A stretch of DNA of 64,000 bases from an uncultured archaeon (GCA_964391265.1 CAYMLT010000001.1:905-64904), one strand, 5' to 3'; numbered from the stretch's first letter, positions 29,743-61,827 are shown. Notes: generated from the sequence alone by a model not told the origin. Numbers and translations: made by a program.

Positions 29743-31704
29743 ATGAAAACAATCAGATGTGCAACAATCCTCTTCATTGGACTTATTTTCATAGTTGGAA
29801 TTAGTACACATCCGGTATTCGCTGAAGAAACGACAGTCGTATCACGCGGAGAACTTTTCACCCTTACAGCTACACTTTTTTCAAATGGCACTTCTGGGAT
29901 CCCTTTGCCCAACCAAGTTGTTTGCTTCTTTGACCAATCATACAATGAATTGATGTCACAAGCAATCACCAACGGCGAGGGAATCGCTTCTATTGACTAT
30001 TCGTTTGATTATGACCACCCTCTTGGACCCACACTTGTAAATATTACATTTACTGGAAATGAATCGGTATCACTAGCACCTACATGCCAATGGCTGACAC
30101 TGGTGGTTACTTCCTCGACCACCATAACTATCACTACATTAGATACGGTATACGCTCCAAATGATCATCTAAGTTTCTCATCCCGATTGTCTGATGACTC
30201 AGGAACTCCAATCAATAACGCAGAACTGTCAATTCTTTGTGATTCCAAATTCATTACATCTAGCTTAACAAATACAACAGGGCATGTTCTATTTGACATT
30301 ATCCTTGATTTTACCAATTTTAGTTTGGGGCAGCATACAATCGATGTTGTCTACAACGGCGACCAAAGCAGATTTTATAGAGGAGCTACAATAAGCTTTC
30401 AGATAGCCATTAATCAACTCCTTCCTACCATAGAACTAGATGGCATTACCAACAATCCAGTAATATTAAACCAAACATGGAATGCATCTATACAGTTACA
30501 GGCTGAAGACAAAACGCTAGCATATAGTCCGATAGATATTCTCCTAGATGATACCTATTTGTATACAATATATACAGATGAACTGGGAAATGCTGAAGTA
30601 CGTCTTCACATCAATCAAACTTTTGAAATCGGCGAGCATAATCTCGTATTCGAGTACACAGGAAACAATCGATATCACTCATCGACGACAGATGTGGTAA
30701 TAAACATAGGAAGTCCAATCTGTCTAAATGTGACACCTTTGAACTTTGCTGAGATTGGAAGCTTCTTGAGGCTTAGAATCACTGCATTCGATTTATATTC
30801 TCGGTCGCTACCGTATGGTATTATTCAAGTTTCAGACCAACTATCAGGTAACAATATCACGACTACAATTTCAAATGCAGCAAAGATTGAAGTTTTATTT
30901 CCAGTTGAAGGTGAGATAGGAATTCGAACCCTTCAGGTGCAGGTTACGAATGGCGCATTACTGACCAACAATACTGTTTCTCTAATTATTGACGTTTTTT
31001 CAAGACCTCAGATGGAAATAGCAAACACCAACATTCTTGGATATGCTTATCCTTCTCAAACATGGATTCTATCTGTCCATATACACGATTATCGTGGCAA
31101 CCTTAGCAACCGAATTCTAGAATATTCCTTATCAGGCACTTCACAGATATCATCAACCATAACTGAAAACGATGGAATGTCCACCAATGAAGTGATTTGT
31201 CCTGATACAGAAGGGGACTATTTCTTATATGTAATATACAAAGGTAATGTATCTGAATATGAACTGCCTTGTAATCAAACACTTGCATTTACAGTCAGTC
31301 AAAAGATACCAATTGTAGTGTCGCTTGAAAAGTATGAAGTAATCAGACCATTGAACACAATTGAAGTCACTTTGCGTCTCCAGAGTTTGAATGGGACTTA
31401 CCCAAAGGATGTAGTAGTAATTTACCAATGGTTGTCTGTTGAAAGTTCAAAACCTTCTAGTTTGGAAGGATATCTTGACATCCAGCTCCCAATACCATCT
31501 AATTCAGGTGTGTATTTGTTAATGTATGAAATATCACCAACCAACGGAATATTATCGCATTCCGGGGTTATTTACATCATCATTACTTCTACTGACGCTA
31601 ATGCATCTGAAGGAATTGGACTATATGGTATCACTCTTGGATTCGTGGGATCTGTGTCCATTTTTTCCATTCCGTTTGTTAGACGCCGACTTATTGTTCA
31701 CTAA
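29743..31704 (+). CDS. Secreted, C-terminally anchored surface glycoprotein (Ig-like repeat-rich)
   Basis: Signal peptide, at least 14 N-x-S/T sequons, a C-terminal TM helix followed by RRR. 653 aa. Confidence 0.5.
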   Translation: MKTIRCATILFIGLIFIVGISTHPVFAEETTVVSRGELFTLTATLFSNGTSGIPLPNQVVCFFDQSYNELMSQAITNGEGIASIDYSFDYDHPLGPTLVNITFTGNESVSLAPTCQWLTLVVTSSTTITITTLDTVYAPNDHLSFSSRLSDDSGTPINNAELSILCDSKFITSSLTNTTGHVLFDIILDFTNFSLGQHTIDVVYNGDQSRFYRGATISFQIAINQLLPTIELDGITNNPVILNQTWNASIQLQAEDKTLAYSPIDILLDDTYLYTIYTDELGNAEVRLHINQTFEIGEHNLVFEYTGNNRYHSSTTDVVINIGSPICLNVTPLNFAEIGSFLRLRITAFDLYSRSLPYGIIQVSDQLSGNNITTTISNAAKIEVLFPVEGEIGIRTLQVQVTNGALLTNNTVSLIIDVFSRPQMEIANTNILGYAYPSQTWILSVHIHDYRGNLSNRILEYSLSGTSQISSTITENDGMSTNEVICPDTEGDYFLYVIYKGNVSEYELPCNQTLAFTVSQKIPIVVSLEKYEVIRPLNTIEVTLRLQSLNGTYPKDVVVIYQWLSVESSKPSSLEGYLDIQLPIPSNSGVYLLMYEISPTNGILSHSGVIYIIITSTDANASEGIGLYGITLGFVGSVSIFSIPFVRRRLIVH

Positions 31705-31717
31705 AAAGCATAATTGG

Positions 31718-31792
31718 TGCTCCGGCCGGGATTCGGACCCGGGTCGGGGAATCGAGAACCCCCCATGCTTGGCCGGACTACACTACCGGAGC
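31718..31792 (-). tRNA. tRNA-Glu (anticodon CUC), with CCA encoded at 31715-31717
   Basis: Cloverleaf by hand: acceptor GCUCCGG/CCGGAGC, T-arm CCGGG-UCCGAAU-CCCGG, anticodon loop UUCUCGA. Confidence 0.75.
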
Positions 31793-31900: not shown

Positions 31901-32104
31901 CTAGGGAAAGAGGTTCGTTAGACCGCTCCAACTATCCTGAAGCAGTTGTAGTAGTCCCGATATTGCTTCTTGCGCCCATCCGGTAGCTTGAAGGATTACT
32001 GCAATAACAATGGATATCGTAATAACAGCGAGTCCAAGAAGAAGGCTTTCTTCTACCAGAGGGCCGCCGTTTTCATCATCTATAAGCGAAGAAGGACCAG
32101 TCAT
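31901..32104 (-). CDS. Small single-TM protein at the end of the rpo8-tfb-ATPase operon
   Basis: 67 aa with one long hydrophobic helix. There is no basic class-III signal peptide, so a pilin identity is unsupported. Confidence 0.25.
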   Translation of the reverse strand: MTGPSSLIDDENGGPLVEESLLLGLAVITISIVIAVILQATGWAQEAISGLLQLLQDSWSGLTNLFP

Positions 32105-32184
32105 AGTACTACACCTTACATTAAGATTCCCTAGTTGCTATTTAAGCCCCACAAATCAAAATCGAAATCGGAAAGATTCTAGTA

Positions 32185-33885
32185 TCATTTTTGAGAAGCT
32201 TTCGAAAATAATGGATATGAATTTGACCAGAGTGTGCTTCCAATATTGGACACATCATTACTTCCGTCAATAATCTTTTTGTGAAGAACCCTTACAAGAG
32301 CATCATACGCAACACGATAATTCTCAATCCCTTTTGCATTTGCCGAGTCATAGAATATACCATCCTTTGACCAAGAATCATTTCCAACCGGATTTTGTCT
32401 ATCATAGATTATATTTAGGCCATTGAAATCAATAATTCCCCGTTGTTCGCTTCGCTTAACTTCTGCTATCTGCTTCACATAACGAAATGACTCTCCAGGT
32501 CGAGGACGTTCAAGTGTCACAATTATATCCAGTAACGCAATGCTTGATTCATTGATATTGTGGTTCTTTGTCCAGCGTGTAACAAGACTGGATGCTGAAG
32601 AGCTATGACACGTCTGGATTGAACACAAGCCGGCAGCAATTGAATGAAACAAAGCAAGGCTGTGTTTCGCAGTCTGAATTTCTCCTAATATCAAATAGTC
32701 TGGAGACCTATGCAAGCTTTTCACAATTTCTGTAGATTTATCAAAGGTACCACCTGTTTCATCTACAGGATCAACTCTAATTCTAACTTGATGATGGTTT
32801 TCATACAAGCGACTTTCAATGGCGTCTTCTATGTAGACTTTGCGCCATATCTGTGGAGTTGTTCTGTCAAGTGCATTCATTAGAGTAGTTTTACCTACTC
32901 CTGGTCCTCCAGTAATCGTAATATTCATTCTGGAGTTGATTGCGAGTATCAGCAGAGCGGCTGCTTCAACACTTAATGTATCGTTTCTTATCAAATCCAA
33001 TATTGTGTATGGTTCGGAACGCGCACGCCTGATTTCAAGATGCATCCCTTCTGCCGCTAGAGGAGGAAGGCTTGCAGAAATTCGAAGGGGTACATTATAG
33101 ATTGTGATATCCGTTTTCAATGAAGGATTTCTTCTATCTAAATGCAGGTTGCTTTCAGCCCGTAGGAACGTTACTAATCTCACTAAATCTTCCTCCTCGG
33201 GCTTCCAGGATATCAGGACCCGTCCTAACCTACGGTGATCAAAATATACTTGACTACCAGGACGATCGAGGTATATTTCCTCAACTTCATCATCTAAAAT
33301 AAGTGGGAATAGGAATTTAAGAATGGTAGAATTGTGTGCTATGATTTCCGAAATGTTGCCTTTTGTAGTAGAATTAATCTCTGGTAATGAAGACTCAATC
33401 TTTGTTATTACATCTGCAGACATATTTTGCAGCTTCTGCTGAAGCTTCCTCCTAGTTGGTTTCTGTCCTATAGAGTAACTTGTGATTTGGCTCAAATCAC
33501 ACACCAATGAATGTTCTAAAGAAGTTCTGGTACGCGGAACCGCATGATGCCAAGTATGGTCAGTAGTTTCATTATGAAAGAAAAGAGAAACGTAGGGGCC
33601 AACTATGTAGGCATCAACAAGATATTGTGCATTATCAACCAGAATATCTATAGAATCCATATAGACTGATTCCCAACTGTTCCCATACCATGGTGGTTCA
33701 ATGGGCAACATTGGACATTGAAGAGGTAAATGGATAAGATTCCTATTAGCTTCAATGAGAAGAAGTTTCTGCGATCTAGAAAACTCAGCAGCAATCAGCT
33801 CACAACCACGTGAAGCGACACGATGCACACATCCTTCACAGCGTGTATCTGGACATGTAATTGACCGTATTTTATCCATATACAT
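32185..33885 (-). CDS. VirB11/FlaI/GspE-family secretion ATPase with an N-terminal Cys4 cluster
   Basis: Walker A GGPGVGKTT, Walker B and Asp box PDYLILGEIQ, His box GLCSIQTCHSS. The N-terminus carries Cys11, Cys16, Cys19 and Cys28. Confidence 0.75.
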   Translation of the reverse strand: MYMDKIRSITCPDTRCEGCVHRVASRGCELIAAEFSRSQKLLLIEANRNLIHLPLQCPMLPIEPPWYGNSWESVYMDSIDILVDNAQYLVDAYIVGPYVSLFFHNETTDHTWHHAVPRTRTSLEHSLVCDLSQITSYSIGQKPTRRKLQQKLQNMSADVITKIESSLPEINSTTKGNISEIIAHNSTILKFLFPLILDDEVEEIYLDRPGSQVYFDHRRLGRVLISWKPEEEDLVRLVTFLRAESNLHLDRRNPSLKTDITIYNVPLRISASLPPLAAEGMHLEIRRARSEPYTILDLIRNDTLSVEAAALLILAINSRMNITITGGPGVGKTTLMNALDRTTPQIWRKVYIEDAIESRLYENHHQVRIRVDPVDETGGTFDKSTEIVKSLHRSPDYLILGEIQTAKHSLALFHSIAAGLCSIQTCHSSSASSLVTRWTKNHNINESSIALLDIIVTLERPRPGESFRYVKQIAEVKRSEQRGIIDFNGLNIIYDRQNPVGNDSWSKDGIFYDSANAKGIENYRVAYDALVRVLHKKIIDGSNDVSNIGSTLWSNSYPLFSKASQK

Positions 33886-33930
33886 CTAAATCTCACACCT
33901 ACTATTCCCACGACAACAGGACACGTCCAC

Positions 33931-34971
33931 TTAAACGGCTAAAGCCGCTTCTGCTTCAACAATGCTCTTTATCATACCAAAATGATCGCGGATACTGTAC
34001 TCAGCAACTTCTGTCGCTTGCGAGGCAAGCTTCTGAGTTAACACGCAGCGTTTTCCATGTTCGGATGCCAACAAACGATCACTTGCATACGTAGCAGATA
34101 CTGTGAATATGAATGGATTGCGCCCTCCGCGCTTTGAAGAAGGTACAAGATTCAAGACAAAAAGTACTTTCTCTCGTAGAAGGTTTTCGTAATCACGTGA
34201 AGTCCAACCGCGTGATTCAATTTTGCCTTTCACTTTCGTGTCATTAATTAACATTGATAAGACTCGCGGAACATAATCTTCTGGTTTCCTAATCTTAGGA
34301 GAGTGTCCTGTAAGGGATCGTATTTTTAGAGCTTCTCTAACAATTGCTCGCACATTCACTCGATGCCCACATTTCTCAAATGTATCTGCAATTTCTTCCA
34401 ATGTAATTGGAGCTCCCTCTTTGAATTCGCGAACAGACATCAATAAACAGACTGCTATAAGTAGAATATTATTAGTTACCTTTTCGGGGGACTCGTCTAT
34501 AATCTTCTTATAGAGATATGCTGTTCGATCACGAACCTGCTCGTTAAGCATAAGAAGTTTAGACACATGATTTAAAGTCCTGAGAGCTCGATATTTAGCC
34601 TCATTTTTTCCTATTCGAACCCTCGTACTGTAAACGTTTTTCAGTCTCTTGTATTTTTTCTGCATGGAACCAGGAAGAGACTGCCCATTCGCATCACGAA
34701 AGTATACATCCTTATGAAAACCAATATAGCTTCCAAGTCCATCCACAATGTGCATCCTATTTCCCAAGGAGCCATATACACTAGCATCCGGAGTTCCTGC
34801 CTTCTGCCGTTCTCCCATTTGATATGTAGGATTAACATACTCTTTAGAAATTACTACGCCACAATCAGAGCAAACAACAAAACCTCTGTTGATTATGATA
34901 GTGCCAGCGCACTCTGGGCATACCCCAGAAAGAACATTTGTTTCAATTGATACATCGACCAATGACCACAC
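33931..34971 (-). CDS. tfb: Transcription initiation factor IIB (TFB) paralog
   Basis: N-terminal zinc ribbon CPEC-x15-CSDC and two cyclin-like repeats; 346 aa. Confidence 0.7.
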   Translation of the reverse strand: MWSLVDVSIETNVLSGVCPECAGTIIINRGFVVCSDCGVVISKEYVNPTYQMGERQKAGTPDASVYGSLGNRMHIVDGLGSYIGFHKDVYFRDANGQSLPGSMQKKYKRLKNVYSTRVRIGKNEAKYRALRTLNHVSKLLMLNEQVRDRTAYLYKKIIDESPEKVTNNILLIAVCLLMSVREFKEGAPITLEEIADTFEKCGHRVNVRAIVREALKIRSLTGHSPKIRKPEDYVPRVLSMLINDTKVKGKIESRGWTSRDYENLLREKVLFVLNLVPSSKRGGRNPFIFTVSATYASDRLLASEHGKRCVLTQKLASQATEVAEYSIRDHFGMIKSIVEAEAALAV

Positions 34972-35144
34972 CCATATTGGCCATTACATTTGTTTCCTAA
35001 CTAGATTTCAGAAGGTTGTTGTTAGTTCCTTCTACTGGTTTGTCCATTTTATCGAATGCAAAACAACATTAGTGGAACATCAGGGGCATGGTGAGAAAGT
35101 GAGATAACCGAAAGTATTCGTGGATAATTGGCGTAATCATCAAT

Positions 35145-35543
35145 TCAATTCAAAGCTATGAAAATCCTTTCAGAATCGAACGCTTTTCTTTGTGTAGGCT
35201 TCGGTGATGGAATCTCAAATTCAAGACGAAGTCCTCCAATGGTTGCAACCACCTCAAAGTTTTCCATCTCATTAATTTTGAATACAGTTCCTTCTGCATA
35301 GAGCTTGGCATTCTCTCCTCTTGGAATTGGCTCGGAGCTAATTGTAACAACAACAGAATCCTTGACATTAAATGGATCACAAAGTGCATCAGGAAGCTCA
35401 AGTGTCAGTGTTGCGCTTTCTAATTTTGATGTTATCTTTAGTACTTTTAGCTTCTTTGTTTCCGCATCATCAATTGAACTAATTATAGCATCCTTTATTC
35501 GCACTGACATTATATCCATGTCTCCAATACCTTGCTGGGGCAT
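35145..35543 (-). CDS. RNA polymerase subunit Rpb8-like (Rpo8/RpoG-type OB-fold protein)
   Basis: TLTLELPDALCDPFNVKDSVVVTISS and YAEGTVFKI...TIGGLRLEFE align to the Rpb8 segments KLTLDIN..LFPVAAQDSLTVTIASS and MYGTAYKF...SFGGLLMRLEG. The alignment was made from memory. Confidence 0.5.
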   Translation of the reverse strand: MPQQGIGDMDIMSVRIKDAIISSIDDAETKKLKVLKITSKLESATLTLELPDALCDPFNVKDSVVVTISSEPIPRGENAKLYAEGTVFKINEMENFEVVATIGGLRLEFEIPSPKPTQRKAFDSERIFIALN

Positions 35544-35631: not shown

Positions 35632-38271
35632 TTGCGACCATATCTAGCTGTCATAATATCATTTGCAGCACTAGTGACTTTCTGTTTTGTTGTTCCAGTG
35701 TCGGCTTTGTATCTCGACTTTGAGTATTTTGAAACTGACCAAATGACGTATGAAGTAGGTGAAACAATCAATATGGTCACAAAAATGACTGCAAATTACG
35801 ATGAAGGTGGCTGGTGTTATGCATCATTTGCAGTAGTTACCGATCAGGGACCTGTTTTTGATGACAGCTACTATGTTGATTCATCGCCAGATGTCCGGTA
35901 TCTCACTTCATCTTACACTGTCATGCCTCAAGATACATCTCCATTTCCTGACCCCATAGTTGCATATGTAATCTTTAATGTCGAAATCTTTGACAAGTAT
36001 TCGCAAGGAGTGAGTGAAAATGTCGAAGTCAATATAACAAGAGGCATTATTCAGGTTCGCCCACTTTCTTCGCTGTCAATTGAAGCAAATAGCAATGCTT
36101 CCATTTCTCTAAGTATGGCAAGTCGCTACAATGAAAGTGTCCCATACGCGAATCAGGCTGTTTCAGTGGAAATCTATGATTTCAGTTCTTCACTTGTATT
36201 TGAAAATGTGACAAACACCGATATGTATGGTCATATCCTTCTTGAATGGGATTCTCTTCCCTTTCCTCTAGGAACCTATTCAATCCAAGTTGGCGGAAAT
36301 GACACCTCCTCATTCCATTCTTTTTCCGATTCACTGATTATGACTGTGGAACCTGAGAATTCAAGTATTAATATTGTTGCCGCCACTGAAGACATGTATT
36401 GTCAAACACCAAGTGGGATGGGCTTTGAATCAGCTAACATTGTTATTGAGCATGTAGATAAGAATGAAAATCCAATCGAGGGATCAATTATTTCATGGGA
36501 AACCGATTTTGCTAATGGCACCTTTAATTCTCAAGGTAATGGAATATACAATACAAACATATCATTCGTAACATCACCCGGTACATATATCGTAAACATC
36601 AGCGCCTTCAATTCTCAATATCAAAATGCAACCAACTATGTTTCAATAGATGTTTTCCCTCGAAATCTTCTAATCACAATAACAAATCAACAAGTCCTTA
36701 CTACGTCTGATGTAGAAATCGCAGTCGCGTTAAAAGACTGGCAGTCTGTAGAACAAATAGAATCACTTCCTGTTGAAATGAGTCTGGTTCTGGGGTCCTG
36801 GAATTATAGTGTAATAGAACTGTCTAACTCTTCAGGGATAGCATTATTCACAGTGAGTATTCCAAGTTCCAAATGGGGTACTGCAGAGATAACTGTAAAT
36901 GTGACTGCATCGCTCTATTATAACGAAGTACATACAACAACAAACATTGATGTTCTCTATGTGCCCCATATAACTAGCGAAATTATATTATCACCCATTC
37001 GAAACGAATTCGCACTTGCAAACCTAACAATTTTGGATCCATTAGGCTTTCCTTCTATTGGTCTAGAGATTTACCTCTTGGATTCCCAAGGCACTTCGAT
37101 AGAATCTGGATCTACCGACTCGCATGGAATAGTTAGCCTAAGATGGTTGATACCGTTTGATGCTCCACTAGGACCTTACAACTACACTATTCTTATTGAA
37201 ACAAACTCTCAATTTGTCCAAGCTATTTCGACTCCCTTGCAAACTGTAATTCATTACCCTCTATGGGTATCATCCACAAATACAACCTGGAATTTTGTTC
37301 GAGGGAGTAATACGGAAGTAGGAATTCTTTTGAAATCAGAAGACGGATTAATGCAATCTATTCCCCTTCTCCTGAATGATAGTCTGGGAGAATTTATGGA
37401 ATACATAATGATACCACTAGGAGTCTTGACAAATATTTCAATCAACATTGGTCCTACCGTGACAATTGGATTTCGGTCAATTGAAATCCTGATTCTGGAT
37501 TCAAATTTTGCACTAATGGGCAATCAATCAATTGACTCATCTATTCTTACAACAATTATATCGACAATCGACAATATTACTGTATTTCAAGGCGAAAATC
37601 TGGAATTTGATTTATTCACTTTAGATGACGCTATGCAAGAAGTGGAAGTCATAAATGTGAATATTTACCAGGGGGGGAATGAAACTCCATTTGCAAATCT
37701 GGTGAATGTGAATACGAACATACGCCAGATAATCCCCCTTCCCCAATGGATTTCTCCCGGGTCCCAACAGATTATAGTTGAAACATTCGGGAATTATTCG
37801 ATTCATGACTACAAGTGCTTGCTAATTGTGGTATGGATTCGAACAACGATTACAATTTCTATTGTTACAAAATATGGAGGAGCCATGATTCCGCAATCTG
37901 AAACTATGCCATACACTCCTTTCCATCAAGAAACTGCAGCAATAATCTCTTCAGGCGTAATAAGCAACCCGCCTCCAATCTTGTTTAATGGAACTACTAC
38001 AGAAGACTCCACAACCCGTGAAATTTCCCCTACCAGTTGTCCAAGGTTTAATTCAGGAACAAGTAACTTCTCAACTGTTTTCGAGAATGCTTTCAACTCA
38101 GTATCCGGAAATGGCCAAAGGGTTCGCAGTCTGATAGATTTAAAGGATGATTTACTTTCAATCATTGCCTCATCAACGGATCTTGAAGTGCTGCCAAATG
38201 AAACCACCCCCCATTCCGCCTTTTCCGGACCCGAAACAACAACATCTGAAATGAGATTCCTCTTTGTTTGA
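35632..38271 (+). CDS. Large secreted surface glycoprotein; the ORF runs 345 bp into the convergent korA gene
   Basis: Signal peptide, many N-x-S/T sequons and a candidate TM anchor near residue 730 (about 37.8 kb). The roughly 130 aa beyond the anchor overlap korA antisense and may be read-through. Confidence 0.45.
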   Translation: MRPYLAVIISFAALVTFCFVVPVSALYLDFEYFETDQMTYEVGETINMVTKMTANYDEGGWCYASFAVVTDQGPVFDDSYYVDSSPDVRYLTSSYTVMPQDTSPFPDPIVAYVIFNVEIFDKYSQGVSENVEVNITRGIIQVRPLSSLSIEANSNASISLSMASRYNESVPYANQAVSVEIYDFSSSLVFENVTNTDMYGHILLEWDSLPFPLGTYSIQVGGNDTSSFHSFSDSLIMTVEPENSSINIVAATEDMYCQTPSGMGFESANIVIEHVDKNENPIEGSIISWETDFANGTFNSQGNGIYNTNISFVTSPGTYIVNISAFNSQYQNATNYVSIDVFPRNLLITITNQQVLTTSDVEIAVALKDWQSVEQIESLPVEMSLVLGSWNYSVIELSNSSGIALFTVSIPSSKWGTAEITVNVTASLYYNEVHTTTNIDVLYVPHITSEIILSPIRNEFALANLTILDPLGFPSIGLEIYLLDSQGTSIESGSTDSHGIVSLRWLIPFDAPLGPYNYTILIETNSQFVQAISTPLQTVIHYPLWVSSTNTTWNFVRGSNTEVGILLKSEDGLMQSIPLLLNDSLGEFMEYIMIPLGVLTNISINIGPTVTIGFRSIEILILDSNFALMGNQSIDSSILTTIISTIDNITVFQGENLEFDLFTLDDAMQEVEVINVNIYQGGNETPFANLVNVNTNIRQIIPLPQWISPGSQQIIVETFGNYSIHDYKCLLIVVWIRTTITISIVTKYGGAMIPQSETMPYTPFHQETAAIISSGVISNPPPILFNGTTTEDSTTREISPTSCPRFNSGTSNFSTVFENAFNSVSGNGQRVRSLIDLKDDLLSIIASSTDLEVLPNETTPHSAFSGPETTTSEMRFLFV

Positions 38272-39256: not shown

Positions 39257-40693
39257 TTAGTTTCTAGATCTCAACCGTTTCCGTAAATCAAGAGTTTTCC
39301 GCAACTTCATCAAGAACTCAGTTTTACCTCCTCTCACCTTCCACCCTTCAATTTCTTGAGAAAGTTCGTAGATTTGGTCAAGGACCTGTAATCTCATGGT
39401 TGGACTCACGGACTCAACAAAAACTTCATGCTCCATGAGGTCATTCTTGATTAGAAGTAACTCAATGAGATAGATTCTCCAACTATCTGTTTCTTCAGAC
39501 AATTTCTCCAGTTCTTTCTGAAGATCTTCCAACTGCCTGAACCCTTCCTTTACCTCCCCTCTAGCAATGACCTGTTGAACAGCCTTTTTCCTTGCAGAGT
39601 ATTCGAACTCGTTGGACCAGAGGGGTTTATTCGTTTCTTCGTCTAATTCTATGTATTGCAGACCGGTTTGGATTTGCACCTTACTCACCAGTTCAGGCTT
39701 GAATCCCTTAGCCTCCAGTAGTTCTCGGATATCCTCCGAGAGTTTCTCACAATCTCTGATCTTTTCTTCTGGTATGTGATAGGCAATACTCTCCAAGATT
39801 AGGTTTTGGTTGTGTTCCAGACTTGCTTGTGCATACAACGGAACTGTGAAGGTTTTTCCTTGGTACAATTGGTTTGAGGCATCAGAACTAGCTGACCACA
39901 CTACATGGTCAAAGGCCCACGTAACACTGACCTGCCACAGTTCCTTCCGCTCTGGAGGTCTTATTCCAGTTCGTTCTTGTTCCTCCAGTATCTTAGGTAC
40001 TAGTTTGCGATATGTTTCCACAATGGAATAACTCTCTCTGAACTCTTTCGGCAGGGTTGATATATCTGGTGTATTGAACTCGTGAATAATCCAATCTGAA
40101 CCTCTTTTGTATACCAAAGCACCAGTCTTGAGGAGGGTGGTAAGGGCGTGCCCTTTCATCATTACAGAGTCAAGTCGTATGACATCCTCAGAGAGGTCAT
40201 CGTACTCAGGGATTACCCTCCAACACGCACCATGACCCTTGGTCGTTTCGAAATATAGGCTATCGGGTTGCCCCGGAGGTCCTTCTAAGTCTTGGAGGTA
40301 TCCATCCCTTCTGCTCTCATCCTTGAACGTCTTGTCCTTGGATAGTGTACTCTTAGTACATACTCCCTTTTCATGGGTGATTCGTAACTCAAGACCAGGC
40401 CATCTACGAGCTTGCACCAGTCCCTTCGCCGTAGGAGGAAGATTCAACTTGGTTGTAGGGAAAGGATTTCTTCTCTCCACCCAGGGCCTAAGAAGAGCCG
40501 TATCATCATCATAAGTGATAGATTTGTCACTGAATCTATCAAAGACCAATCTTTCCTTTTCCACTATCACAGGTTCGCATTCAAGACTGGGGCGTCGTAA
40601 AATCTCGATGATATCACTTGTACGCTTCACGACTAATTTCCCAATCACAGATCCATTATCATCAGGTTCTAAGAACTCTAGGTTATACATCAT
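39257..40693 (-). CDS. Hypothetical protein (478 aa) with a C-terminal coiled coil
   Basis: Long ORF; no motif recognised. Confidence 0.35.
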   Translation of the reverse strand: MMYNLEFLEPDDNGSVIGKLVVKRTSDIIEILRRPSLECEPVIVEKERLVFDRFSDKSITYDDDTALLRPWVERRNPFPTTKLNLPPTAKGLVQARRWPGLELRITHEKGVCTKSTLSKDKTFKDESRRDGYLQDLEGPPGQPDSLYFETTKGHGACWRVIPEYDDLSEDVIRLDSVMMKGHALTTLLKTGALVYKRGSDWIIHEFNTPDISTLPKEFRESYSIVETYRKLVPKILEEQERTGIRPPERKELWQVSVTWAFDHVVWSASSDASNQLYQGKTFTVPLYAQASLEHNQNLILESIAYHIPEEKIRDCEKLSEDIRELLEAKGFKPELVSKVQIQTGLQYIELDEETNKPLWSNEFEYSARKKAVQQVIARGEVKEGFRQLEDLQKELEKLSEETDSWRIYLIELLLIKNDLMEHEVFVESVSPTMRLQVLDQIYELSQEIEGWKVRGGKTEFLMKLRKTLDLRKRLRSRN

Positions 40694-40861
40694 TGACTCC
40701 TTATCCAGGGATACACTACATCGTGCTGTCTTGGTCTTCCCATAGGCTCTGGCAATAATCCTAAGCCCATATTTGATATCCTGCCCTAAGCTTCTTGAAA
40801 CATCTCTGACTTGTGATGCATTGATGCCCTGTAGTGATGGGTCGTTACGTAGTGTGTAACT

Positions 40862-41965
40862 CTAAAGCAAAGTTACATCTTCCTTAGCACGAATCCAGTA
40901 ATCGAACCGTCCAATTGGAATCCACCCACCATACCCCAGGTCGCTAATCCAGAGACCTCTGACACCTTGATATGTAGCGACCATAATTGGAACTCCTTTT
41001 GATACGTCTGCCTTTTCAGCCATGACTCTGAGTTTTGTCATATCGGTTTCACCCCAATAGGGACGGTCCCTGAGGATGTCCTGTAAGAGGGGAAAGATGT
41101 TCCATGTTGAAGAGAACGGGAGTTGGAGCAAATTAACGTTCATCTCAGAACTCCCAATTCTGGATTGGAATACTAACCAGATGGCTGATGGATGCCTCTC
41201 TTTCTTTTCTTTCACTGGGATTATCCGACCAAAGAGGACATCAGACGGACCATTCTTCTGGATGACTTCTCCAAGATTTCTGACCTTTCTTGATAATGTG
41301 TCTAGAAGCCTTCCTCTATTCAAAACGGATTTGCCAGTCTTGTGCTGTGCATGATAGAGTGGTGAAAAACCCAACGTCATCAATTGCCAAGGTAGAATGA
41401 ACTTCCAGAGTCTCTCAAGAAGACCGGTTGAGGGTTGTGAGATGTTGTTTTGTTCGAGTGCTGCAAGTAGTAAGAAGAAGAACTGATTACCTGTTAGCAA
41501 TAGGATTCCTGGGTACCTAAGAGAGAGTTTATACATTGCATCAGATGATTGTGGGGTCAGACCTTGGGGCGTCTTTAGTCTGAGAGGTCTGAGTGCTTTC
41601 CAGATTAGTTTTGTCTTTGAATAGTTCTCCAAAAGCTGAGAAACATCCCTCAAGACATGAAAGAGTTCGCGTCCCTTTTTCTTCCTGATTTTCTTAGGAT
41701 CTAGGATGACAGAGAGCTGATTCAAGAGTCCCTTCCATCGGTTGCTTTCACGGGACCTTAGAAGTCTGGTTGCTGCTCTCAAGCCATTCAGTTCCTTGCG
41801 AACCATGTCTGCAAGAAAGATAGACACATCGGTGCCCTGTGGAGTAAGGTCCGTCTTCTTGACCATGAAATCGCTCGTATTGTCGCTGCAAAGACTGTCT
41901 GGTTCTGTGAACAACATCAAGTACAGAAAATCTTCTTCGAGGACCTCAGGAGCTTTCAGGCTCAT
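40862..41965 (-). CDS. Hypothetical protein (367 aa)
   Basis: Long ORF. Its first roughly 40 codons are antisense to the TnpB remnant, so the real start is probably an internal Met. Confidence 0.3.
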   Translation of the reverse strand: MSLKAPEVLEEDFLYLMLFTEPDSLCSDNTSDFMVKKTDLTPQGTDVSIFLADMVRKELNGLRAATRLLRSRESNRWKGLLNQLSVILDPKKIRKKKGRELFHVLRDVSQLLENYSKTKLIWKALRPLRLKTPQGLTPQSSDAMYKLSLRYPGILLLTGNQFFFLLLAALEQNNISQPSTGLLERLWKFILPWQLMTLGFSPLYHAQHKTGKSVLNRGRLLDTLSRKVRNLGEVIQKNGPSDVLFGRIIPVKEKKERHPSAIWLVFQSRIGSSEMNVNLLQLPFSSTWNIFPLLQDILRDRPYWGETDMTKLRVMAEKADVSKGVPIMVATYQGVRGLWISDLGYGGWIPIGRFDYWIRAKEDVTLL

Positions 41966-42292
41966 GCAGGGTCGAAAGACCTATCGTACAATCTGAGTTC
42001 AAACCTCTGGGGAAAAGTCATCGACACGGTCAGATACATGCGAGAGTCCCTTGGACATAACAAATACTCAGTCTGGACAGTGAATCCCCAGTATATCTCT
42101 CAGACCTGTCATGTGTGTGGGGAGAGAGGGAAGCGAGTAGAAGATGAAACCTCCACCACTGAGAGAAAAGGTGGAGAGTACTTCTACTGTGTAAGGTGCG
42201 ATGAGCATTTCCATGCCGATGTGAATGCGGCTCGAAACATTATTCATGTACAAGATAACCTATCCAGTGTCGCTCCTGGACGTGCAGCTTGA
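41849..42292 (+). pseudogene. tnpB: TnpB (IS200/IS605 OrfB) C-terminal remnant: RuvC-II/III plus zinc finger
   Basis: Stop-free frame IFFEDL...VNPQYISQTCHVCG...YCVRCDEHFHADVNAARNI. The N-terminal roughly 250 aa are absent or scrambled upstream. Confidence 0.7.
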
Positions 42293-42414
42293 TATTCAAG
42301 TTTGTACAACTTACAATGAACGACAGGACGGAAGCTTCCCGCTAACCTGCCAAAAGACCAATCATATTAGCAATAATCTTAAATCACAGCCCAAACCTGA
42401 ATGTTTCCAGAATT

Positions 42415-42486
42415 GCGATCGTTGTCTAGTGGTTATGATGTAGGCTTCCCAAGCCTATGACCCGGGTTCGAGTCCCGGCGATCGCA
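42415..42486 (+). tRNA. tRNA-Gly (anticodon CCC), with CCA encoded at 42487-42489
   Basis: Acceptor GCGAUCG/CGAUCGC, anticodon loop UUCCCAA, T-arm CCGGG-UUCGAGU-CCCGG. Confidence 0.85.
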
Positions 42487-42590
42487 CCATTACTTCTAGT
42501 AGAGGGTTGGGCGAACCTAAATTCATGTCCAATATCTGCAATTCTTGAAATCCAAGCTTTCAACCCGTGACGGAATCCAGAGAATGAGTT

Positions 42591-56815: not shown

Positions 56816-57894
56816 AGTTCCACGGCGATAATGTTACGAGTCAATCCACTGTGTACTGGAATCAGCATATCATATTTAACATTCAATCCAGCGTCATCGA
56901 AAAGATTCCTCATATTCATTTCTTGACTGCCACATATGCAGATTTTACCCCTAGGTTCAATAAAATCGACTGATTGTTCTATTAATGAGTTAACGAGACG
57001 GACAGCATTCTCTCCACGAGTTGAGCTTGTTCTACCATATGGAGGATCAGTGACAATAGAATCCATACGAGCAACCGGAATTTTTCTGGAATCTCCTTGG
57101 ATTAGTGAAAAATCAGAAATATTGAGATTAATGAGATTTTTCTGAGCTCCTTTGAGGAGCTTCCAATTCATATCAATCCCAGTTACTTGTGCACCAATTA
57201 GCGCAGCCTCGCAAAGAATGCCCCCACCTCCACAAAAAGGATCCAATACAGATTGGTTTGGTTGCACACTGGCCAAGTTACACATGACTCGGGCAAGCAA
57301 TGCATTCATCATGCTCGGATGGAAGAACGCTCTTGTATTTGGATTCCGTTGCGTAAGGGCCTGTCGTTGATACGATCTGAATGTTTCACATAGGACTGCC
57401 TTGTCGTGTATTATATTAACAACAATATTCACATCTGGATGACTAAGCGAAACAGAAGCTCGGGTAACATCCTGAATTCTTTTTCCCACATCAATTATGA
57501 ATTGTTGTTTCTCTTCTTCTTCGAAAAGATAATCTGTTGTGTAATTCCTTACAGAAAAGCTTCGTTTCGCGTTCAGAATATCTGTCAAAGGTTCATTTGT
57601 TATTCCATTAAGTAAGGCTTCAGGGTCACTACCCTCATACAATACGTATCCAGCTTCTCTTACCAAGGCCGCTCTGCTAAGAAGAAAGGGAATAGGATCT
57701 GGTTTGCATTTAATGAATCCTAATCTTCCATGCCAACAGATACCAACACCGATAGAATGAAGGTCAACTAATGATTCAATTTCGGCTCGTGCTAGTTCGA
57801 TATCACTTCCGGAAATATGCACATAATATTTGAACACAGACCCATCACTCGTAGAGATTATCGCCACCAAGGAGTATCCTCTGAAATTCACCAT
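56812..57894 (-). CDS. THUMP-domain tRNA (guanine-N2)-methyltransferase (Trm14/TrmN-like)
   Basis: N-terminal THUMP domain, DPFCGGGG SAM motif and DPPYG catalytic motif. Confidence 0.75.
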   Translation of the reverse strand: MVNFRGYSLVAIISTSDGSVFKYYVHISGSDIELARAEIESLVDLHSIGVGICWHGRLGFIKCKPDPIPFLLSRAALVREAGYVLYEGSDPEALLNGITNEPLTDILNAKRSFSVRNYTTDYLFEEEEKQQFIIDVGKRIQDVTRASVSLSHPDVNIVVNIIHDKAVLCETFRSYQRQALTQRNPNTRAFFHPSMMNALLARVMCNLASVQPNQSVLDPFCGGGGILCEAALIGAQVTGIDMNWKLLKGAQKNLINLNISDFSLIQGDSRKIPVARMDSIVTDPPYGRTSSTRGENAVRLVNSLIEQSVDFIEPRGKICICGSQEMNMRNLFDDAGLNVKYDMLIPVHSGLTRNIIAVEL

Positions 57895-58609
57895 AGAGTG
57901 TTTCGAAACCAGTTACCTGCTTGCCGGAAACAGGTATCACACTTGGCCCGCCCCCCATGTCGTCCAACATTCTTAGCACAAACGAAGAGAATTCACGCAC
58001 CAATCCACTTGAGGAGGCATTAAGAGCCTCCTCAAGACGGTATGGTTCCGCAGACCACTCAACGATGTCAGCAATCTCCACATCAGAGAGAATATCAGCC
58101 TTACTAAGTAGGTTGAGTTGAGGAAGGCCAAAACGGATATTTAATGAAAAACCGAGGAGCATGGAAGCGAGATACCCATCCGGTTGTCGGGCGATATTGG
58201 AATCAAGAAGATACAGTGATAATGCAGGGTCCTGACCGGCCAAGGAGGACACCATGAGTGGGCCTGAATTGCGATAGGCAAAGAGTTCCATCTGTCCTGG
58301 ACAATCAACAATGACATAGTCTCGACCCAGGTCTGCAATCTCTTCACGTAAGTCATTCGCACTGCCGACCGCCATATCCAAGGAAGCGACAAGAGCACCA
58401 TTAGGTCCGAGGCCAAACTGTTGCATGATATCCCCGTAGTCTACATAGTCACGGATATCGACATCAGAAGTGTAGGGAGGAGATTCTACACCCGGATCAA
58501 GGTTTACGATAGCAACACTAACCCCGGATGACACAAGCCAGTCCTCAAGAGAGGCTGACAAGATGGACTTACCTGCACCAGCAGTTCCAACAACGAACAA
58601 GAAGAACAT
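57845..58609 (-). CDS. GPN-loop GTPase
   Basis: GTAGAGKS P-loop, the LGPNGAL GPN motif and DCPGQ. Start trimmed to the third Met. Confidence 0.75.
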   Translation of the reverse strand: MFFLFVVGTAGAGKSILSASLEDWLVSSGVSVAIVNLDPGVESPPYTSDVDIRDYVDYGDIMQQFGLGPNGALVASLDMAVGSANDLREEIADLGRDYVIVDCPGQMELFAYRNSGPLMVSSLAGQDPALSLYLLDSNIARQPDGYLASMLLGFSLNIRFGLPQLNLLSKADILSDVEIADIVEWSAEPYRLEEALNASSSGLVREFSSFVLRMLDDMGGGPSVIPVSGKQVTGFETLYGEFQRILLGGDNLYE

Positions 58610-58739
58610 GAACCATAGCCACACCATCAAGTGCTTTGAGTGCTTTGGTCAGGACGTCTTGGAGGGGAATTCGACTCTTGACGAATTGCGTGTACAGCCT
58701 TTGAACAATGCTTATCTTATCCAGCGAGAATATCAGTAT

Positions 58740-60879: not shown

Positions 60880-61827
60880 TTGACTGATGATCTCAATGAA
60901 TCCCTGCAAAACATCAAGATGATTACTGGAGTTGAGAATGTAGTTCTTATTCAGAAAGATGGACTCCCAGTTGCGAGTGCAGGAGTATGGTTTAGCAAAG
61001 AAGAGGTCTTTGCAGTGGCATCATCGACCTGTGCGATTTTTGGAGTTGCTAGACTAATCCACGGTGATTTCAAGTACCTCTTAATGGAATCTGAAACGTC
61101 CAAGGTATTTCTTGCATCACTTCCAAACAATCCCGATTATTTTCTCACAATCACTACTGCACCAAGAGTCAATCTTGCAGCACTCTTTATAGAAATGCGA
61201 GATAGTATGACACGGGTTTCATTTATACTACGACAACATGCAGATGGGCGACTTCCTCCGCTTCGTTCATATAGCGTAGAGGAAACACAGCAAGTACTTA
61301 GCGGCTTTGCAGTCGCTGATGGAAACGCGCCAACTTATTCAACTTCCCGTTCCACAATTTCACTCGACCGTTCCCAAGCTCTAGCTCTTAGATCCGTACT
61401 TCGCCAACTTCACGACAGTATTCCCAATATTGAATCTGTTTTTCTTTCACTGAGTGGAGGTGTCAGGGTATCCCTTGAAGGCTTCACAAATGATCGTCTT
61501 GCTGCTATGTCATTTGCGTTACACGATGCATCTGAGAGAGTTGTGCGCACACTACGTAACAGTTCACTTCAGACAGTATTGTGCGAAACAGGAGAGAACC
61601 GTCATTTTATCTATGCTGTCCCTAATGGCGTATTCAGTCTGTGGGTGAAAAAAGATAACCAAAAGCTAGGATTGATGCGTCTTCTTCTGAAACACTATAT
61701 CGCAGAAACGCAGAGAGTTCTAAGTTCCGCTTCAGTTACTCGCCCTGCACTACCTCAGGATTTACGCGAACTGCTGCTTTCTGAACGCCCCAAGAGGGAC
61801 CTTCTCGTAATGAGGAAACGAACATGA
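60880..61827 (+). CDS. Tandem Roadblock/LC7 (MglB-like) domain protein
   Basis: ITGVENVVLIQKDGLPVASAG is a typical roadblock start; a second roadblock-like half begins IESVFLSLSGGVRVSLEG. Confidence 0.55.
   Translation: MTDDLNESLQNIKMITGVENVVLIQKDGLPVASAGVWFSKEEVFAVASSTCAIFGVARLIHGDFKYLLMESETSKVFLASLPNNPDYFLTITTAPRVNLAALFIEMRDSMTRVSFILRQHADGRLPPLRSYSVEETQQVLSGFAVADGNAPTYSTSRSTISLDRSQALALRSVLRQLHDSIPNIESVFLSLSGGVRVSLEGFTNDRLAAMSFALHDASERVVRTLRNSSLQTVLCETGENRHFIYAVPNGVFSLWVKKDNQKLGLMRLLLKHYIAETQRVLSSASVTRPALPQDLRELLLSERPKRDLLVMRKRT

Follow-up and report, generated by a model that had tools for sequence, protein, structure and literature searches.

A Thorarchaeota locus linking a TFB paralog, a secretion ATPase and a pilin-like protein: a candidate minimal Tad-like filament system next to rpo8

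Among described archaeal type IV pilus (T4P)-like systems, those of 'subclade 4D' in Pyrobaculum and Thermoproteus (Makarova, Koonin and Albers, 2016, Front Microbiol 7:667, PMC4858521) offer the best comparison for the locus analysed here, which occupies positions 31,901–35,543 of a 64,000-nt stretch of DNA from an uncultured archaeon (GCA_964391265.1 CAYMLT010000001.1:905-64904; hereafter the window, meaning the whole stretch) and comprises rpo8, a TFB paralog gene (tfbl), a secretion ATPase gene and a small gene for a single-helix membrane protein. The 4D systems consist of an ATPase (arCOG05558, 'PAE2119-like') of 335–343 aa whose N-terminus carries an extra Cys-rich region, a membrane protein (arCOG05557/13890) with 4–5 transmembrane (TM) segments that is maybe a diverged TadC, a TFIIB homolog (arCOG05559) and RPB8, which lies within the operon in Thermoproteus and divergent from it in Pyrobaculum (PMC4858521). 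No pilins were found in them and a transcription-related role was suggested; in the same paper, TFIIB homologs are the commonest predicted regulators in archaeal T4P loci. Functionally, these secretion ATPase systems with linked TFIIB and RPB8 genes have stayed uncharacterised since 2016. That a TFB paralog can drive pilus genes has a precedent in TFB3 with the Ups/Ced systems (PMC6101594, PMC11868833).

An earlier note on the window had regarded this gene combination as undescribed. It is not, since the Thermoproteales 4D systems, known since 2016, have the same four-part composition, and the best reading of the module, compared by description, is that of an Asgard counterpart of these systems. 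With moderate confidence, we further read the locus, next to rpo8, as a minimal Tad-like filament system to which a TFB paralog is dedicated.

Components of the locus

The four minus-strand open reading frames (ORFs) described in the earlier note are present, at 35543–35145, 34971–33931, 33885–32185 and 32104–31901, and their features are collected in Table 1. They had been described as tightly spaced, but the gaps are 173 nt between rpo8 and tfbl, 45 nt between tfbl and the ATPase gene and 80 nt between the ATPase gene and the small gene, so that tight packing is limited to the last three. The 173-nt spacer probably holds the promoter of a tfbl/ATPase unit, and it is long in all Thorarchaeota loci (median of 227 nt between the stop codon of rpo8 and the codon for the first Zn-ribbon cysteine). 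Loci for comparison come from a genome scan with an 8-sequence alignment, which returned 80 loci, 70 from Thorarchaeota and only about 10 from elsewhere; close homologs of the locus genes come from metagenome-assembled genomes (MAGs) named Candidatus Thorarchaeota.

The second gene encodes a divergent, full-length TFIIB-family protein, as had been proposed, which is not a canonical TFB by score. Single-sequence matches were weak (Zn_Ribbon_TF, 4.1e-5, below the Pfam cut-off; TFIIB repeat, 2e-4; Pfam TFIIB, 21.8 bits with a cut-off of 23.6; NCBIfam TFB PRK00423, 9e-16 and 57.8 bits against a cut-off of 384; human TFIIB, 0.002). The profile of an alignment of 21 diverse family members matched both the TFB core of Pyrococcus (1.8e-18) and human TFIIB (6.7e-17). 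Among the Zn-ribbon cysteines (C18/C21/C34/C37), C18, C34 and C37 are invariant in this alignment and C21 is conserved in at least 90%, and the motifs LGSYI, RGGRNPY and VAEYSIRDHY can be read from it as well. The structure model contains a three-stranded ribbon, with residues 50–82 at a predicted local distance difference test (pLDDT) score below 50. The protein has two cyclin-fold repeats and a C-terminal helix-turn-helix (HTH). These proteins form a distinct family: an exhaustive search of 1.84 billion representatives gave 544 matches with E<=1e-3, of which 247 reached <=1e-10 and 89 reached <=1e-30, most of them full-length and with 24–58% identity. In the three clusters looked up, the named members are limited to Asgard lineages (Baldr/Odin, Jord, Heimdall, Hod, Hermod, Sigyn) and 'Thermoprotei archaeon' MAGs.

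Across about 65 Thorarchaeota species, median identity to the window proteins is 75% for the small protein, 73.5% for Cdc6, 71% for the TFB paralog and 70% for POR; the corresponding values are 51% for the DUF87 ATPase encoded nearby, 50% for Rpo8 and 49% for the secretion ATPase, and 35% and 32% for the flanking 879-aa and 653-aa immunoglobulin-like (Ig-like) proteins. The TFB paralog is constrained like a housekeeping gene, which fits a factor that would keep contacts with TBP, DNA and RNA polymerase and leaves room for a role beyond local regulation.

A few members of the family (P0304, P0317, P0330, P0348 and P0423) are long multidomain proteins of 796–2330 aa, some with extra cyclin repeats or with N- or C-terminal regions of 300–1900 aa that our hidden Markov models (HMMs) do not recognise; either genuine fusion or faulty gene calling could explain them. 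Two TFB-like paralogs, OEZ01_05515 and OEZ01_08630 (P0496/P0503), occur in a single Heimdallarchaeota MAG, and the first of the two (locus L087, 8001–12069) is followed by a 986-aa protein without a Pfam match in place of the ATPase.

The product of the third gene is a secretion-type ATPase, again as proposed (Pfam T2SSE, 1.9e-18 and 66.7 bits, over the cut-off of 24.9). An exact look-up of its sequence gave no entry, and homologs were used for the comparison. Its best NCBIfam match was the TadA family (1.3e-26), with FlaI at 2.5e-22, and its closest solved relatives are A. fulgidus GspE2 (2oap, 8.6e-22), then CpaF (1e-15) and FlaI (5e-15). The Walker A motif (GGPGVGKTT), Asp box (IEDAIES), Walker B motif (PDYLILGEIQT) and His box (QTCHS) show no variation among 20 orthologs, SNLHLDxxNPSLK, LHRSPDY and QTCHS are specific to the family, and about 125 aa extend beyond the ATPase core at the C-terminus. 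A literature search on the precomputed domain 'UCP018868' (PF27713) found nothing. Of the zinc-ribbon-like N-terminal Cys cluster that had been noticed, the four cysteines (C11, C16, C19 and C28) stand as near-invariant, although their spacing differs from that of a classical two-knuckle zinc ribbon; they are presumed to form a metal site for Zn or Fe-S. In the ATPases of Freyarchaeota/Jordarchaeia and of locus L086, the Cys positions align with parts of a Cys-rich N-terminal domain that is about 150 aa larger, and the ATPases of Baldrarchaeota and Heimdallarchaeaceae have no N-terminal Cys cluster.

The 67-aa single-helix membrane protein is present as described and very conserved (86% mean column identity in five orthologs). 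Small proteins of Thorarchaeota, Freyarchaeota, Jordarchaeia, Baldrarchaeota, Heimdallarchaeaceae and L086 have in common the motif [KR][GA]↓[SG]PL[VI]EE[GS], where the arrow marks predicted cleavage. The N-terminal signature reads (D/K)E(N/R)G↓GPLVEESLLLGL in Thorarchaeota, KDDKG↓SPLVEEGILIGL in Freyarchaeota, KDEKA↓SPLIEEGLLIGL in Baldrarchaeota, KDNRG↓SPLTEEAMLIGL in Heimdallarchaeaceae and KNRTA↓SPLVEEGILL in L086. A charged leader, K/R-G/A, a glutamate at +5 and a long hydrophobic helix thus make up the pattern, and motif and helix are found in five lineages. We take this pattern to resemble class III signal peptides, those of bacterial Flp pilins especially. We call the protein pilin-like and not a pilin, with a predicted cleavage site. 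Upstream of the small gene, 41 aligned regions (40 Thorarchaeota loci and the window) have in common a G-rich element, a TATA-like box (GGGGCTTAAATA) and, after the box, the ribosome-binding site GGTG; the consensus reads 'ggGgactTaAAaa'. These predicted promoter elements would fit a separately, strongly expressed structural gene.

The identification of the first gene as Rpb8/Rpo8 stands, but not through the Pfam comparison that the earlier note had suggested: RNA_pol_RpbG gave E 0.0072 and 16.8 bits, under its cut-off of 27. A phmmer search of the PDB gave no match, and on sequence alone the claim would fail. The protein has the Rpb8 fold, GGLR (G92 G93 L94 R95) is invariant in 34 Rpo8 sequences, and 45 of 45 homologs are exactly 121 aa long, so we place the start at M12 (35510). 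GGLR corresponds to a conserved C-terminal motif of Rpb8, GGL(L/R)x. The L086 homolog contains AGGLQLRL, and hhalign identified the first L086 gene as rpo8 with a probability of 94.7% (E 6e-8). As a 2026 survey found Rpo8 in Thermoproteota and in nearly all Asgard genomes (PMC13257274), we consider gene 1 to be the organism's ordinary rpo8.

Table 1. Positions in the window of the module and its immediate neighbours
Feature	Position	Strand	Remarks
Membrane-anchored DUF87 (HerA/VirB4/CedD-like) ATPase, 1282 aa	25752-29600	minus	Pfam DUF87 9.4e-16
Secreted Ig-like (Big_3_5) protein, 653 aa, C-terminal anchor	29743-31704	plus	Fast evolving, conserved neighbour
tRNA-Glu(CTC)	31715-31792	minus	Rfam 47.4 bits, cut-off 29 (600-nt search); 3' CCA encoded
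Flp-pilin-like single-helix membrane protein, 67 aa	31901-32104	minus	Motif ..DENG↓GPLVEESLLLGLAVITISIVIAVIL..
TFB recognition element (BRE)/TATA-like box GGGGCTTAAATAGC	32137-32150	minus	About 38 nt before small-gene ATG; then GGTG ribosome-binding site
TadA/FlaI-clade secretion ATPase, 566 aa	32185-33885	minus	Pfam T2SSE; precomputed domain PF27713 'UCP018868'
N-terminal Cys cluster of the ATPase, C11-x4-C16-x2-C19-x8-C28	33802-33855	minus	Near-invariant in 20 orthologs
TFIIB/TFB-family paralog, 346 aa	33931-34971	minus	Zn ribbon, presumed reader/linker (disordered), two cyclin repeats, C-terminal HTH 'VAEYSIRDHF'
Spacer between rpo8 and tfb-like gene, 173 nt	34972-35144	minus	Putative promoter of tfb-like/ATPase unit
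rpo8, RNA polymerase subunit Rpo8/Rpb8, 121 aa	35145-35510	minus	ORF open from 35543; orthologs start at M12
Secreted Ig-like protein, 879 aa	35632-38271	plus	Divergent from rpo8; fast evolving, conserved neighbour

Linkage across lineages and what it suggests

In practically all of the approximately 70 species-level Thorarchaeota loci, the order is the 879-aa Ig-like gene (-), rpo8, tfbl, the ATPase gene and the small gene (+), the 653-aa Ig-like gene (-) and the DUF87 gene (+), and in the rearranged loci L073 and L075 the parts are still nearby. This order alone is weak evidence, since the wider neighbourhood (Cdc6, tRNA-Gly, POR, an amino-acid kinase and S10) is syntenic too; unrelated neighbours could have been kept together by regional synteny, conservation within one class proves little against this, and for rpo8 such an explanation may well hold. 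Loci from other classes speak differently about tfbl, the ATPase gene and the small gene. In Freyarchaeota/Jordarchaeia the ATPase gene is divergent from the small gene and tfbl, and is followed by two membrane (platform) genes. Baldrarchaeota have the order tfbl, ATPase, small gene, with an overlap of 23 nt between the first two. Heimdallarchaeaceae carry the small gene on the opposite strand and, after it, tfbl, ATPase, platA and platB, with gaps or overlaps of up to 14 nt. Loci L086 and L091 share a nine-gene order (rpo8, tfbl, p135, ATPase, platA, platB, small gene, DUF87, XPD), which is kept at only 51% ATPase identity and in which, as read in L086, start and stop codons overlap. The label 'Thermoprotei' of L086 is unverified, and its ATPase and platform proteins are closest to those of Freyarchaeota/Jordarchaeia, the platform pair being orthologous between Freyarchaeota and L086 (E 1e-22 and 1e-14). 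In a further metagenomic group the ATPase gene is followed by a gene for a platform-like protein of about 500 aa, and tfbl lies about 8 kb away.

The neighbourhood comparison that the earlier note had called for therefore shows the tfbl–ATPase linkage to be conserved well beyond Thorarchaeota, in differing order and orientation. Because the trio is kept in other classes with other flanks, orders and orientations, its coding regions in several of these loci overlapping or nearly touching, chance or purely syntenic adjacency is contradicted for these three genes, and as an account of the whole locus we consider it very improbable. The linkage of the trio across rearranged lineages indicates that the TFB paralog, the ATPase and the small protein are a functional unit. 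The module is old, being present in a lineage that bears the label Thermoprotei as well as in several Asgard classes.

Some genes were seen beside the module in particular lineages only. The p135 product, found in the L086/L091 lineage, is a 135-aa helical coiled-coil protein encoded between tfbl and the ATPase gene (L086 7866–8273, L091 8111–8536), has no family match, and its L086 gene has start and stop codons that overlap with the genes on either side. An LSm protein with Lsm_C adjoins the module in Baldrarchaeota (L085 7003–7434) and Heimdallarchaeaceae (L088 5001–5441), and FtsZ is also adjacent to it in Baldrarchaeota.

An ATPase of the TadA type, a pair of single-domain platform proteins and a subunit resembling Flp together correspond, as predicted from their sequences, to the minimal parts list of a Tad/Epd-type type IV filament machine. 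In the reading that we favour, the TFB paralog and TBP would recruit RNA polymerase to the module promoters and perhaps to a wider regulon, and the ATPase hexamer, docked on the platform proteins, would pull the processed small protein from the membrane and polymerise it into a surface filament; the neighbouring large Ig-like proteins might serve as surface or adhesin partners, and the Cys cluster or Rpo8 may have a role of their own. Of the two possibilities raised by the earlier note, a minimal surface machine carrying its own transcription factor thus has the most support, from the TadB/C-like platforms, one of which matches Pfam T2SSF, and the Flp-like N-terminus, and an ATPase-coupled transcription module has less.

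Several observations weigh against a filament system. Neither a platform protein (searched with T2SSF and with HMMs from related loci) nor an A24/GxGD prepilin peptidase was found among the window ORFs scanned, in line with the earlier remark that FlaJ/TadC and peptidase genes are missing, and there is neither within 8 kb of the module in Thorarchaeota or Baldrarchaeota loci. The small proteins gave no match to the pilin/Flp models of Pfam and NCBIfam, and one of the platform proteins from the related loci matched Pfam T2SSF at 1.3e-4, just below the cut-off. A tfbl gene occurs without the ATPase in Hodarchaeales (L089) and in a second Heimdall paralog (L087). Local regulators and major pilins are not usually conserved like housekeeping genes, as the TFB paralog and the small protein are. 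Finally, the comparison of the Asgard proteins with the Thermoproteales proteins arCOG05558 and arCOG05559 is one by description. Either the platform and peptidase parts of Thorarchaeota are encoded elsewhere or this version works differently; the platform proteins might also have been replaced.

Part of this evidence could be accommodated if the ATPase and its membrane partners no longer built a filament and instead controlled the TFB paralog, and hence RNA polymerase and rpo8. They might sequester, release or remodel the factor on a membrane or redox signal sensed by the Cys-rich domain, much as in bacterial anti-sigma or FlgM-export coupling. A role related to transcription was brought up for the 4D systems by Makarova et al. 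(PMC4858521), the TFB paralog is conserved like core replication genes, and Thorarchaeota and Baldrarchaeota loci have no platform genes. In addition, rpo8 adjoins the module in three settings, namely all Thorarchaeota loci, L086/L091 and, according to the literature, Thermoproteus/Pyrobaculum, and in the loci examined this adjacency occurs only where the ATPase has a Cys-rich N-terminus. However, rpo8 is not adjacent to the module in the Freyarchaeota, Jordarchaeia, Baldrarchaeota and Heimdallarchaeaceae loci, and in most lineages platform-like genes are retained together with a pilin-like gene under a predicted strong promoter of its own, which argues for a structural product. A TFB paralog–ATPase fusion of the Rosetta-stone kind was sought among the long multidomain family members with our own HMMs, and none was found. 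We consider such a transcription-coupled machine unlikely. Decidedly unlikely, in our view, is its bolder form, an ancient signal-coupled transcription switch that predates the Thermoproteota/Asgard split and in which the ATPase, docked at the membrane and bearing the Cys cluster, governs the availability of a dedicated TFIIB factor. If this were true, surface-structure assembly or a redox or membrane signal would directly reprogram initiation by the Rpo8-containing RNA polymerase, an archaeal parallel to sigma/anti-sigma export coupling and perhaps an early step by which TFIIB-like factors diversified.

Neighbouring genes and chromosomal setting

The DUF87 gene is found in nearly all Thorarchaeota loci. 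The window protein has N-terminal TM segments and a C-terminal region of about 480 aa whose fold is unassigned, and its best NCBIfam match is CedD (2.7e-10), at 39 bits against a curated cut-off of 600. In L086 and L091, a soluble 442-aa DUF87 ATPase closes the cluster and is followed by an XPD-type helicase (L086 12311–15444; L091 12437–14484); CedD is again the best match (9.1e-22, 77 bits against the cut-off of 600), and the ATPase domains of the two DUF87 proteins align with 25% identity (E 2e-10). The DUF87 ATPase of the window is possibly part of the same system. Since CedD is required for DNA import (PMC11868833), this raises the idea of a DNA exchange or uptake machine, in which an Flp-like pilus contacts or captures DNA, the CedD-like ATPase imports it and the TFB paralog encoded in the module switches the system on, as TFB3 does for Ups and Ced in Sulfolobales. 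We regard this as improbable: the CedD scores are far under the curated cut-off, there is no DUF87 gene near the module in the Freyarchaeota, Jordarchaeia, Baldrarchaeota and Heimdallarchaeaceae loci, no VirB6/CedA-like channel or VirB2-like component was identified, and the reading is weakened further because Ced/Ted systems have neither a VirB11-type ATPase nor a TFIIB homolog. In a search for defence systems, PADLOC returned only generic HerA/mad8 matches on the DUF87 protein, and a defence system was rejected.

With regard to the Ig-like proteins, the 3' end of the 879-aa ORF (37926–38271) overlaps the convergent POR alpha-subunit gene by 345 nt. An Ig-like ORF end overlaps POR in a similar way in L001 (3578–3962), and the tail of the 879-aa ORF matches an antisense frame of POR in Baldrarchaeota (L085 12408–12665). 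Because of this overlap and match, the last 115 residues or so may be a mere side effect of the conserved POR sequence, without forming functional protein.

The locus had also been described as sitting in a tRNA-flanked, accessory-looking region, which the comparison does not bear out: about 70 Thorarchaeota species show synteny of the locus and of the genes around it, including the tRNAs, and the region belongs to the core chromosome. The window encodes MCM, Orc1/Cdc6, two RFC subunits, GINS, Hel308, a proteasome ATPase, ribosomal protein S10 and POR subunits, as well as Asgard-typical proteins, Roadblock/LC7 among them. The tRNA-Glu gene noticed at the end of the operon is there (Table 1). 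It adjoins the small gene in L001, L006, L007 and L072 and in the rearranged L075, and it marks a conserved point of the chromosome downstream of the small gene and is no integration site. With a 10-kb query at the Rfam gathering threshold this tRNA went unreported, which is an effect of the tool's filter and not a property of the tRNA; between 29 and 39 kb of the window, Rfam gave no RNA family besides it.

A tRNA beside a VirB11-type and a VirB4/HerA-like ATPase is what an integrated mobile or conjugative element with its attachment site in tRNA-Glu might look like. Against such an element, the GC content is flat (about 0.40 across the locus), the genes occupy the same place in about 70 species with the tRNA itself among the conserved neighbours, an integrase and any meaningful PADLOC match are lacking, and 2.9 million viral contigs contained no relatives of the TFB paralog or the ATPase. 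On the last ground the mobile-element reading was rejected, and we consider it extremely improbable.

Some further features of the window can be recorded. The piece of about 3 kb between POR and Cdc6 beside tRNA-Gly (39257–42489) is the truly variable, accessory-looking part, as the POR–Cdc6 distance is only about 0.4–0.65 kb in L001 and L003; ORFs of 478 aa (39257–40693) and 367 aa (40862–41965), both without a Pfam match, lie there between POR and tRNA-Gly(CCC)/Cdc6. Asgard-typical genes include those for a scramblase/LOR-like protein (93–644), a GPN-loop GTPase (ATP_bind_1, 57845–58630) and a 315-aa protein with a Roadblock/LC7 domain (60880–61827).

Comparison with known systems

The ATPase belongs to the same superfamily and size class as FlaI (ArlI) and A. 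fulgidus GspE2 (see the matches above), but the Cys4 N-terminus and the family-specific motifs set it apart from these, and unlike an archaellum locus the Thorarchaeota locus has no genes for archaellin, FlaJ, FlaH or FlaG/F. Tad/Flp (type IVc) and Epd-like pili are similar in their TadA/CpaF-type ATPase, in a very small pilin-like protein with a G/A↓xxxxE motif and, as regards the related loci outside Thorarchaeota, in two separate single-domain platform proteins. They differ in that the Thorarchaeota locus itself has no platform protein or prepilin peptidase and its small protein has no Flp or pilin HMM match, and in that Tad loci are not known to carry a TFIIB-type factor. Together, the platform pair and the Flp-like candidate subunit bear on which surface filaments Asgard archaea make.

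As to the transcription factor, the Sulfolobales offer a likeness in TFB3, a TFB paralog that controls both a type IV pilus (Ups) and a HerA/VirB4-like DNA translocase (Ced; PMC6101594, PMC11868833). TFB3, however, is truncated, UV-induced and encoded outside the Ups/Ced loci, whereas the Thorarchaeota paralog is full length and encoded inside the module, and the relation of the DUF87 protein to CedD is weak. If the paralog proves to be a dedicated initiation factor, it would be a clear example, among the closest relatives of eukaryotes, of specialisation by promoter class.

By description, the likeness to the 4D systems lies in a Cys-rich secretion ATPase, a membrane protein and a TFIIB homolog in the same predicted operon, with RPB8/Rpo8 in or beside it. 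In the literature searched, which is incomplete, we found no later work on the 4D arCOGs and no account of the Asgard module. The differences are several. The Thorarchaeota ATPase has 566 aa and a C-terminal extension, whereas the 4D ATPases have 335–343 aa and no C-terminal domain; the TFB paralog has two cyclin repeats and the 4D homolog one; the membrane partner is a 67-aa single-helix Flp-like protein in place of one with 4–5 TM segments; and Ig-like secreted proteins and DUF87 flank the Thorarchaeota locus, whereas the 4D systems were described without pilins or secreted proteins. The Freyarchaeota, Jordarchaeia, Heimdallarchaeaceae and L086 loci differ from 4D in another way, having the small protein together with two polytopic proteins. 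What is new with respect to the original 4D systems is therefore a conserved candidate filament subunit, the Flp-like small protein, and a Tad-like platform pair. The 4D-like combination is a core and strongly conserved feature of Thorarchaeota, and its trio core extends across several Asgard classes, so that what had been a curiosity of the Thermoproteales becomes a module widespread in the two archaeal groups with Rpo8.

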